Below, in pieces: positions 43,065 through 45,354 of a stretch of DNA of 64,000 nucleotides. Origin of the DNA: Moniliella sp. 'wahieum' (Eukaryota); assembly GCA_003971905.1 (NCBI GenBank), contig RSEE01000074.1, forward strand, positions 248,001-312,000, given 5' to 3'. A program made the translations under genes and the position numbers. Each line of letters begins with the position of its first letter. Positions within the stretch are counted from its first letter, which is position 1. Below the pieces are notes generated by a model that did no database searches, was not told the origin of the DNA, and worked only from the letters and a program-made list of their open reading frames with translations.

Positions 43065-45354
43065 CTAGTCTTGGAGCTTGGCGCGTTGCTGAAAAAGCTT
43101 ATGTCGAGAGGCGTCCTTGAGCTGCTTGTTGGCTGTACCCTTGCGCTCCATATATGCCATGTTCTGGGCACCAGAAAGGGAGGCCATCGAGCCCATGGCA
43201 CGTTTCGCACCCGGCTCTCGCCCGTGTCTTTACTGACCAAGGAATAAAAAATCGTGTTGAACCCCTCATCGTTCCGGCGCTTGGCACGCAGAATCCGGCC
43301 CAACCGTTGTGCTTCCTATCGTCTTGAGCCAAAGTGCGAGCTGACTTAGATCAGGCAGGTGGCCCCAGGCAAGTCGATGGAAGTGTCGCCCACTTTGGAC
43401 AGGAAGATGGTATTGACGGCGGGGTTGTGCTGAAAGTGCTGGAGAATGCGCATGCGTTCCACTTGGGGCGTACCGCCGTGGATGTAGGGTTTACCGAGCG
43501 TACGGGCATACTGTTCCAGAGTAAAAACGTTGTCGGAAAAGACAATGATCTTGTCGCTTCGCCCCTCGATGTACGCAATCAAAAACTGGGCCGCTTGGAA
43601 CTTGTTGGGGTTCATACAATAGAGCAGGAGCTTGCTTCGCGCCGACGCTTCGAGGTACTGCGCGTAAAATTCGGGCGTCATGGGGCACCATCCCTCGGCA
43701 CATTGAACCGTCGCAATGTGACCCTTGGCCGCGAGGTCCATCCAGTTGGCCTCGTACAGCTTGGGCCCAACCAGAAAGTTGAGTTCGTCATCTTATCGTC
43801 CTCGAACCAAAGTGGCTGTCAAACCTAGCTTGGAATGCGCCTTGATCTTGCTCAGCACCCTGCGGAACATGCTAGCTGGTACCACGTATACCTCATCGAG
43901 CAAAATGAACCCCCATTCACGCGATTCGAGAAAGTTCATCATCCTTTGCGAAAGATAAAACCGCTTGCCCGTGTTGGCCACCATCGAATACGTCGACACC
44001 ACAATTCCTGAAGCCCCCGAAAACTTCTCTTTCGAATCGGCAGTGAAGATGGAGACTTGGTTTTCTTGGATGTTGGACCACTGGAGGAATTGCTGTCGCC
44101 ACTGAGCAACCGAGACCGAACAAGTGCACAAGACCAAAAGCATGATTTTTTAATCGTGCAAGCCGCTGTGATCCCGACCAGCGTTTTTCCTGCCCCACAA
44201 GGAAGAACGATGACCCCGCTCCGAGCACGCCCATTGCCAAACATCTTGCTCAAACTTTTTTCTTGATAAGGACGAATGTGGGTGTTGGGCTTGAGGTCAA
44301 TCTCCAGATTGGCATTGAGTTGGTCGTTGCGAAAGTCGTACTCTTCGAGCATCGGCAGCCCAATCTCTTCACACCGCTTCTTGACTATCTCAATGTGCGC
44401 CTAGGCAACCTCAAATGAATGAACTGTCTCGTCCTCGTCCAGATCATCCGTCTCGTCTACCCCAATGATCGCGTTAAATAGGTCGGCCTCGGCGGGCGGC
44501 TGCGCGCAGGCTCAGTTGCTGTCCCAGGCTTGTTCCCCTCCGCTGCCTCGGTGGCTGTAGGCCGGCTTGTACCAGGAATCACTAGGTTGCCCCGCTTTGG
44601 CGCTTGGGAACGACCTAGCACCTCTGTACCCGTGACGTCGAGCCTGCTGGCGCATCCACTTCGCGCACCCGGGTGGCCGAAATGACCGGATCACGGAGCA
44701 AGATTTGCAGAATATCGGGCTGGGCAGACTCGACAAAGTACTTGTTCTGCTTGAGCACCAGCTTGATCTTCCCAAATGCAGCGGTAGCATCCGTGATAAA
44801 GTCGATGACAGATTTGGGGACCGGCACCTTGGATATCCGGCTCAACACCTCAATGATATCGGCCGGATCGAGCCCGACACTGACGGCGGCATAGAGACTG
44901 TACTTGGTCAGCTTGTATTCGTGGATAAAGGCAGGACGAGAAACAGGTTCGGCAATCGTAATCAGAAAGTCCTGCGCCTGCTCGGCGATGGGGGAGAATC
45001 CCTCGAGGATGATGTGCATGTCGTCGGGACTGATCCAGAGCGGGCGGGTGGCATGGCCGGATTTGAGGTGCATCATACTAAAGTCGCGGCCATTGGTGAG
45101 GATGGGATGAAAGCCGCCAGCACGAGCATTGGCGCGCAAGTTGAGGGATTGCGTGCCACGCCCGTTGCCCTCATCGTCGGATACGAAGTCGTCCTGGTAC
45201 TGGAAGCGCGAATCATCGTCGTCGCCCGAGTCACCGTGGCCGGCAGGAGGCGCAGCGGAGGAGCTGGCTTCTCCGGGCGAGGACCGCGGTTGAGGGTCAG
45301 GCGGATCTTGCGCTGAGGGCCATCGTCGCTATCTAGGCCGCGCTTGGATGACAT
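43065..45354 (-). pseudogene. SSL2: TFIIH helicase SSL2/RAD25/XPB, apparently pseudogenised
   Basis: Clear XPB motifs: [59 protein letters not shown], and C-terminal [16 protein letters not shown]. In-frame stops at 44401-44403, 43346-43348 and 43316-43318. DEVH->DEVY. Conserved block missing at ~43222. Gene identity is very high confidence; pseudogene status depends on read validation. Confidence 0.75.

Follow-up and report, generated by a model that had tools for sequence, protein, structure and literature searches.

A probably decayed copy of the TFIIH helicase gene SSL2/XPB in an indel-ridden draft genome of the Ustilaginomycotina

What might explain why a gene for the TFIIH translocase subunit SSL2/XPB carries three in-frame stop codons, an altered helicase motif II and a large deletion, in a stretch of fungal DNA where the neighbouring genes that we compared carry frameshifts and no in-frame stops? 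In every eukaryote where its loss has been tested, XPB has proved essential. The assembly is demonstrably error-prone, and single base calls in it are unsafe, those of the lesions included. Our analysis of the window, by which we mean the whole 64-kb stretch of DNA under study, indicates that the locus is probably a truly decayed, non-functional SSL2/XPB copy in a genome of the Ustilaginomycotina, read through a draft that contains some 2-6 small indel errors per kb. Taken at face value, the locus can encode neither a working helicase nor a full-length protein, and the gene-specific pattern of its lesions argues that the disabling ones are real in the DNA. The first-pass annotation of the window had raised a real pseudogene as one reading of this position; that reading is favoured by the restriction of the substitution damage to one gene, and it is tempered by the fact that every base of the evidence comes from a noisy draft.

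The locus extends from an ATG at 45354-45352 to a terminator TAG at 43067-43065 on the minus strand (43065-45354), as delimited by tblastn and frameshift-aware alignment. It has no intron and is colinear over its whole length with P0001, an 855-aa SSL2 of a related fungus from a Logan assembly. Six tblastn HSPs to P0001, distributed over three minus-strand frames, cover it. The longest open stretch (44618-45328, minus strand) encodes 237 amino acids of the XPB N-terminal domain (PF13625, Pfam E=6e-38), with 84% identity to P0001. Pfam also places ResIII/helicase lobe 1 at 43796-44149 and the ERCC3_RAD25_C domain in two pieces, profile positions 1-129 of 248 at 43349-43792 and positions 141-174 of 248 at 43034-43315, all on the minus strand. 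This is the domain order of Ssl2/Rad25 of Saccharomyces cerevisiae and of human XPB/ERCC3, in which PF13625 is followed by ResIII lobe 1 and ERCC3_RAD25_C lobe 2. With the 237-aa N-terminal stretch as query, 1504 proteins among 4927 candidates were matched at E<=1e-3. The top match was P0001, over 92% of the query, and the named top matches came from Tilletiaria anomala (rad25, P0004), Violaceomyces palustris (SSL2, P0006), several Ustilaginaceae and Malassezia, which places the organism in the Ustilaginomycotina. Identity to P0001 rises from 84% in the N-terminal part to 93% in the core. A search of solved structures returned yeast Ssl2/Rad25 and human XPB as top matches, a 146-residue stretch of the locus aligning to residues 526-671 of the yeast protein with E about 6e-70. 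Judged by its sequence, the locus is SSL2/XPB, and the three Pfam domains and the structure matches bear out the identity first assigned to it.

Where is the reading frame broken? An in-frame TAG lies at 44401-44403 (minus strand, sequence reading and alignment) within a stretch of 17 residues, where P0001 has Glu322, a position that a single step from GAG would convert to a stop; among 113 full-length SSL2 homologues, on whose alignment all conservation figures for the gene rest, this column falls under the 90% conservation cut-off. The other two stops replace glutamines that are 99% conserved in those homologues: a TAA at 43346-43348 (CAA>TAA, in ATCLI*VSSH) and a TAG at 43316-43318 (CAG>TAG, in GSRR*EAQRLGR), the latter at the Gln that opens a conserved block of 11 residues, both on the minus strand. 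All three stops are in frame with conserved residues on either side. The 99%-conserved His of motif II is lost where DEVH has become DEVY (TAC, 43886-43888, minus strand). Other changed sites include the 100%-conserved Val of CAEVW, now CAEGW (GGA at 43693), the 100%-conserved Gly of RGDK, now RSDK (AGC at 43558), and the 98%-conserved Glu of DLPEA, now DLPGA (GGG at 43366). The three stops, the motif II change and these three substitutions had all been listed in the first-pass annotation, with both glutamines called invariant, and each is present in the sequence at the coordinates given. In total, 11 missense changes found only in the window occupy columns with a conservation of 97% or more, spanning 43252-45058 on the minus strand: D>G at 45058, I>V at 44409, S>C at 44122, S>F at 43960, H>Y at 43888, V>G at 43693, H>I at 43570, G>S at 43558, E>G at 43366, A>T at 43255 and F>I at 43252. 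The majority of the 11 are radical.

Further damage, absent from the earlier list, consists of six frameshifts and the loss of 89 codons. The tblastn match to P0001 residues 410-717 stops at 43217 and the match to residues 807-855 resumes at 43214 in another frame, so that residues 718-806 are replaced by 2 nt at 43215-43216 (minus strand) with a change of frame, as the HSPs and a reading of the junction agree. The C-terminal helicase domain, lobe 2, and the C-terminal linker are thereby short of roughly 265 nt, and a conserved block of 24 residues falls inside the missing part. The 89 codons were not found elsewhere within the 64-kb window (best tblastn E=0.14), and a deletion of this size was seen only in SSL2. 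The frameshifts, all on the minus strand and placed by frameshift-aware alignment, are a 1-nt deletion at P0001 codon 27 (45278-45279), the absence of one codon plus 1 nt in the variable linker (44631-44632), a 1-nt deletion in the same linker (44506-44507), five bases in place of one codon beside a T run (44135-44139), and a pair of deletions at 43790-43804. The paired deletions (-2 at 43804 and -1 at 43790-1) run through the R-E-D of LVREDDKI, a tripeptide that we take to be the motif following motif III of XPB/Ssl2, and they also give rise to an out-of-frame TAA at 43793-43795. These deletions resemble the noise found throughout the window, so the disruption of R-E-D is possibly not real.

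How far does the locus depart from a functional helicase? Like Ssl2/XPB, it keeps the Walker A motif GAGKT (44182-44196, minus strand, frameshift-aware alignment), which fits the GxGKT pattern of functional helicases, and most of its core motifs are recognisable. Unlike Ssl2/XPB, it has three nonsense codons, DEVY in motif II, a stop for the Gln that opens the 11-residue motif VI block, no counterpart to 89 codons that belong to lobe 2 and the C-terminal linker, and 11 near-invariant changes. Instead of the uninterrupted frame of about 750-950 aa expected of a functional member, there are three stops, six frameshifts, a frame change at the junction and the missing 89 codons, and motif II DEVH, the motif VI block and a complete ERCC3_RAD25_C are all lacking. 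Two properties expected of a pseudogene, homology to a functional family and relaxed constraint, are both present. The intact P0001 has no private deviation at the 349 near-invariant columns where the window copy has its 11.

Before any of this damage can be read biologically, it has to be set against the quality of the surrounding sequence. All four genes compared were aligned with one aligner, each to the closest relative at hand, and together they contain 35 frameshifts in 9.6 kb. Deletions make up 29 of the 35; by size, 24 are -1, five are -2, four are +1 and two are +2. SSL2 accounts for six frameshifts in 2138 nt aligned to P0001 (2.8 per kb). The neighbours, all on the plus strand, are MET13/MTHFR (40663-42522; four frameshifts in 1794 aligned nt, references P0121 and P0126), an S9 peptidase (49572-51690; five in 2117 aligned nt, reference P0243) and a DHX29-like DEAH-box helicase with intact motifs (60437-64000; 20 in 3564 aligned nt, reference P0241). 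None of the three has an in-frame stop, which agrees with the earlier remark that neighbouring genes have indels and no lesions of the SSL2 kind. Their frameshift densities range from 2.2 to 5.6 per kb, and the SSL2 value falls inside this range. A homopolymer of at least 3 nt adjoins 22 of the 35 frameshifts; the expected number is 16.2, and a count as high as 22 arose in 79 of 2000 random placements. In a tRNA gene at 26350-26429, the T loop is one base short. The frameshifts most likely stem from errors in sequencing or in the consensus of a draft assembly that was never polished, because housekeeping genes cannot all be broken repeatedly and because the neighbours otherwise look constrained. 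Since the frameshift density of SSL2 is ordinary for the window, its frameshifts are uninformative about the state of the gene.

The substitutions are distributed differently. In-frame stops number 3 in 763 aligned SSL2 codons and 0 in the 2499 aligned codons of the three neighbours (Fisher p=0.013). At the 349 SSL2 columns conserved to 97% or more, 11 deviations are found only in the window, none only in P0001, and five in both (binomial p=0.001). Three neighbours provide the whole substitution baseline, and MTHFR, with 198 columns conserved to the same level, has one window-only change, none confined to the sister and five shared. Fisher's test of the near-invariant changes of SSL2 against those of MTHFR gives modest values, p=0.064, or p=0.023 once the two nonsense codons that replace invariant Gln are included. 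The S9 peptidase offers 29 near-invariant columns, with no change in either the window or the sister, and the DEAH helicase has 58 window-unique and 77 sister-unique changes over 1148 columns. Constraint is thus relaxed at SSL2 relative to its orthologues and its neighbours (11 vs 0 at 349 columns; 1 vs 0 for MTHFR), and substitution-type damage is confined to SSL2 among the genes compared.

In protein distance, the window and P0001 differ at 49 of 647 SSL2 columns (7.6%) and at 8.3% for MTHFR, which is the less conserved protein; the corresponding distances to the outgroup are 18.4% for SSL2 and 25.9% for MTHFR. Scaling by the outgroup predicts about 38 SSL2 differences, which by our arithmetic leaves about 11 in excess, as many as there are lesions at invariant sites. 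The case is weakened by a polarised relative-rate test over all columns, which was not significant and came out much alike for the two genes (22 vs 12, p=0.12 for SSL2; 13 vs 6, p=0.17 for MTHFR).

Could SSL2 nevertheless be intact at this locus, with the stops, the missense changes and the 265-nt gap all being consensus errors of the draft? The 35 frameshifts in four genes and the tRNA with its shortened T loop do mark the sequence as unpolished, and long-read error rates are described, in the abstract of PMC12007338, as creating frameshifts and premature stops that pseudogenise genes. The window shares with unpolished long-read assemblies its deletion-biased indels of 1-2 nt, partly beside homopolymers and in every gene examined. 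However, this class of error leaves the substitution damage of a single gene and the 265-nt loss unexplained: 2499 codons of neighbouring sequence are without such damage while SSL2 has three stops and 11 invariant-site changes, and a clean loss of 89 codons is unlike the small-indel errors elsewhere in the window. A patch of low quality should also have raised the number of indels, and the SSL2 density is no higher than that of its neighbours; local low-coverage error, which the first-pass annotation had named as the outcome that would undo its reading, is disfavoured on the same ground. It is because the local indel rate is not raised that we take the large deletion and the layer of substitutions to be genuine, and we regard an intact gene hidden by assembly errors as unlikely.

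Several other readings were considered and rejected. A variant code or read-through in which TAR encodes Gln was prompted by the position of two of the three stops at invariant Gln; it conflicts with the lack of in-frame stops in the 2499 neighbour codons, and the terminator of SSL2 itself is a TAG, located where P0001 ends. Hypermutation by RIP or deamination would give a spectrum of nearly all C>T and G>A in one set dinucleotide context, whereas that of the window-specific lesions is mixed (four C>T, two G>A and five A>G, with G>T, T>G and T>A among several transversions), and GC3 is normal at 0.67, compared with 0.64-0.73 in the neighbours. The lesions do not lie within introns, the locus being colinear with the protein and the stops being inside conserved blocks. 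For a retrocopy, no poly(A) tract was found in the 3' flank, and the absence of introns is uninformative. No repeat of at least 40 nt touches the interval 42.5-46 kb, as transposon or repeat flanks would require. Decay of the whole region, for instance of a degenerating duplicated segment, is rejected as far as the three neighbours compared are concerned, none of which has an excess of substitutions; beyond these, the window also contains MFS transporter, PRPP synthetase, Mex67-like, E1 dehydrogenase, Bin3 and SPC25 genes.

The damage separates into two superimposed layers. The first, the deletion-biased frameshifts that run through the whole window, is most likely sequencing or consensus noise. 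The second, present in SSL2 only and made up of the three nonsense codons, the 11 near-invariant missense changes and the 89 lost codons, has the look of neutral decay after a loss of constraint. This decay would be recent, with an estimated 13 or so hits among some 350 near-invariant codons and an unchanged GC3; by our estimate, a few tens of point changes scattered at random over 2.3 kb would produce roughly three stops. The relic derives from the lineage's own SSL2, because it has five lineage-specific deviations in common with P0001. Since XPB is essential in studied eukaryotes, we infer that a functional copy lies outside the window, and it may be either a paralogue or relocated gene elsewhere in the genome or an allele or homeologue on another haplotype. 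A review (PMC13024598) calls the integrity of TFIIH essential. A tBLASTn search for a second SSL2, as had been advised at the outset, found none at E<=1e-3 within the 64-kb window.

Some indication of how the locus came to its present place may be found in its neighbourhood. SSL2 and MET13, which are adjacent here, have their matches on contigs of differing size in Tilletiaria anomala, Ustilago trichophora, Malassezia psittaci, M. sp. CBS 17886, M. vespertilionis, Testicularia cyperi and the close relative (11749 vs 16457 bp). As weak evidence, this points to a derived adjacency of SSL2 and MET13, with the proviso that the cluster statistics may mix assemblies.

A special form of the decayed-copy reading is that the genome is diploid, dikaryotic or hybrid, or that the region is non-recombining and linked to the mating-type (MAT) locus, and that the window comes from a haplotype whose null allele is sheltered by the intact allele or homeologue of the other haplotype. 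An essential gene decayed to this degree does need a permanent back-up, and the apparent constraint on the neighbours is what would be expected if SSL2 alone were dispensable on that haplotype. Nevertheless, free-living haploid stages, which are common in Ustilaginomycotina, would expose a lethal null. The linkage to MAT genes suggested earlier finds no support within the 64-kb window either, where no homeodomain gene or STE3-type pheromone receptor was detected among 353 ORFs of at least 90 aa (Pfam E<=1e-5), a screen that small pheromone genes and ORFs broken by frameshifts may escape. We consider this sub-case of the pseudogene reading distinctly unlikely.

Complete loss of XPB, whereby the relic would be the only SSL2 of a haploid, free-living basidiomycete that opens its promoters without the XPB translocase and forfeits nucleotide excision repair, is unsupported and highly improbable: the lack of another SSL2 in the window would agree with it, but the space searched is only 64 kb, SSL2 is full-length and intact in the closest relative and in 113 of 113 aligned homologues, the slight and recent decay is more in keeping with a redundant copy than with a loss to which the lineage adapted long ago, and we found no report in the literature of a fungus lacking XPB. 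What makes such an absence thinkable in principle is the acute removal of XPB by degradation in human cells, after which, in PMC13024598, bulk transcription is described as largely intact.

We found no report in the literature, supplements aside, of a fungal XPB/SSL2 pseudogene. Compact fungal genomes seldom contain pseudogenes of essential single-copy genes, but such pseudogenes are not a new phenomenon. The practical lesson of the locus is that in drafts affected by indel errors, frameshifts carry no information, whereas nonsense codons and substitutions at invariant sites, when judged against neighbouring genes, can still tell a real pseudogene from noise. In the unlikely event that the genome holds no other copy, the organism would offer a natural experiment on transcription without XPB. 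If accurate reads confirm the lesions, the locus would be a copy, inactivated not long ago, of an essential gene that the eukaryotes studied have only once, which would imply a recent duplication or relocation of SSL2, or a homeologue, in this lineage and would provide a small, concrete example of how an essential gene turns over in a compact fungal genome.

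Frameshifts of 1-2 nt, several per gene, occur in all four genes of the window that can be aligned to proteins of close relatives: the MET13/MTHFR gene (40663-42522), the SSL2 relic (43065-45354), an SSL2/XPB-derived locus read as a decayed helicase gene copy, the S9 peptidase gene (49572-51690), and the DEAH-box (DHX29-like) helicase gene (60437-64000). Together these alignments contain 35 frameshifts in approximately 9.6 kb, 29 of which are deletions. The DEAH-box helicase gene alone accounts for 20, or 5.6 per kb, roughly double the frequency seen in the other three aligned genes; its motifs and residues are still well conserved, and therefore the density of errors is uneven along the window. 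Two cases of paired deletions, -2 followed by -1 for a net change of -3, were found, one in SSL2 (43790-43804, 13 nt apart) and one in MTHFR (40787-40825, 37 nt apart). In each, a brief out-of-frame stretch is followed by restoration of the frame.

The SSL2 relic lies in an ordinary, compact gene arrangement. On one side, approximately 540 bp (42523-43064) separate it from the MET13 stop codon; on the other, an SPC25-domain gene is transcribed divergently and probably starts approximately 420 bp away (45355-45772). No repeats were found flanking the relic. Among the matches listed, those to SSL2 and to MET13 are found on differently sized contigs in relatives.

Two tRNA genes were matched by Rfam, at 26350-26429 (+, 47.2 bits) and 51947-52042 (-, 46.4 bits), with anticodon-loop insertions of 13 and 16 nt, respectively, that are presumably introns; the T loop of the former is one base short. 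ARAGORN identified no tRNA genes in the window. The E1 dehydrogenase gene (PF00676; 5468-6813, +) is divided between two ORFs in different frames; judged by eye, the split resembles a normal intron, about 100 nt long and starting with GTACGT, rather than a frameshift. A lower-GC stretch at 32-40 kb (GC about 0.51-0.55), none of whose ORFs has a Pfam match, contains a tandem duplicate of a 58-nt ACATG/CATG-rich unit (33999-34114, copies 97% identical).

The window has the appearance of an unpolished draft assembly, and because of this any ORF-based annotation will come out fragmented.
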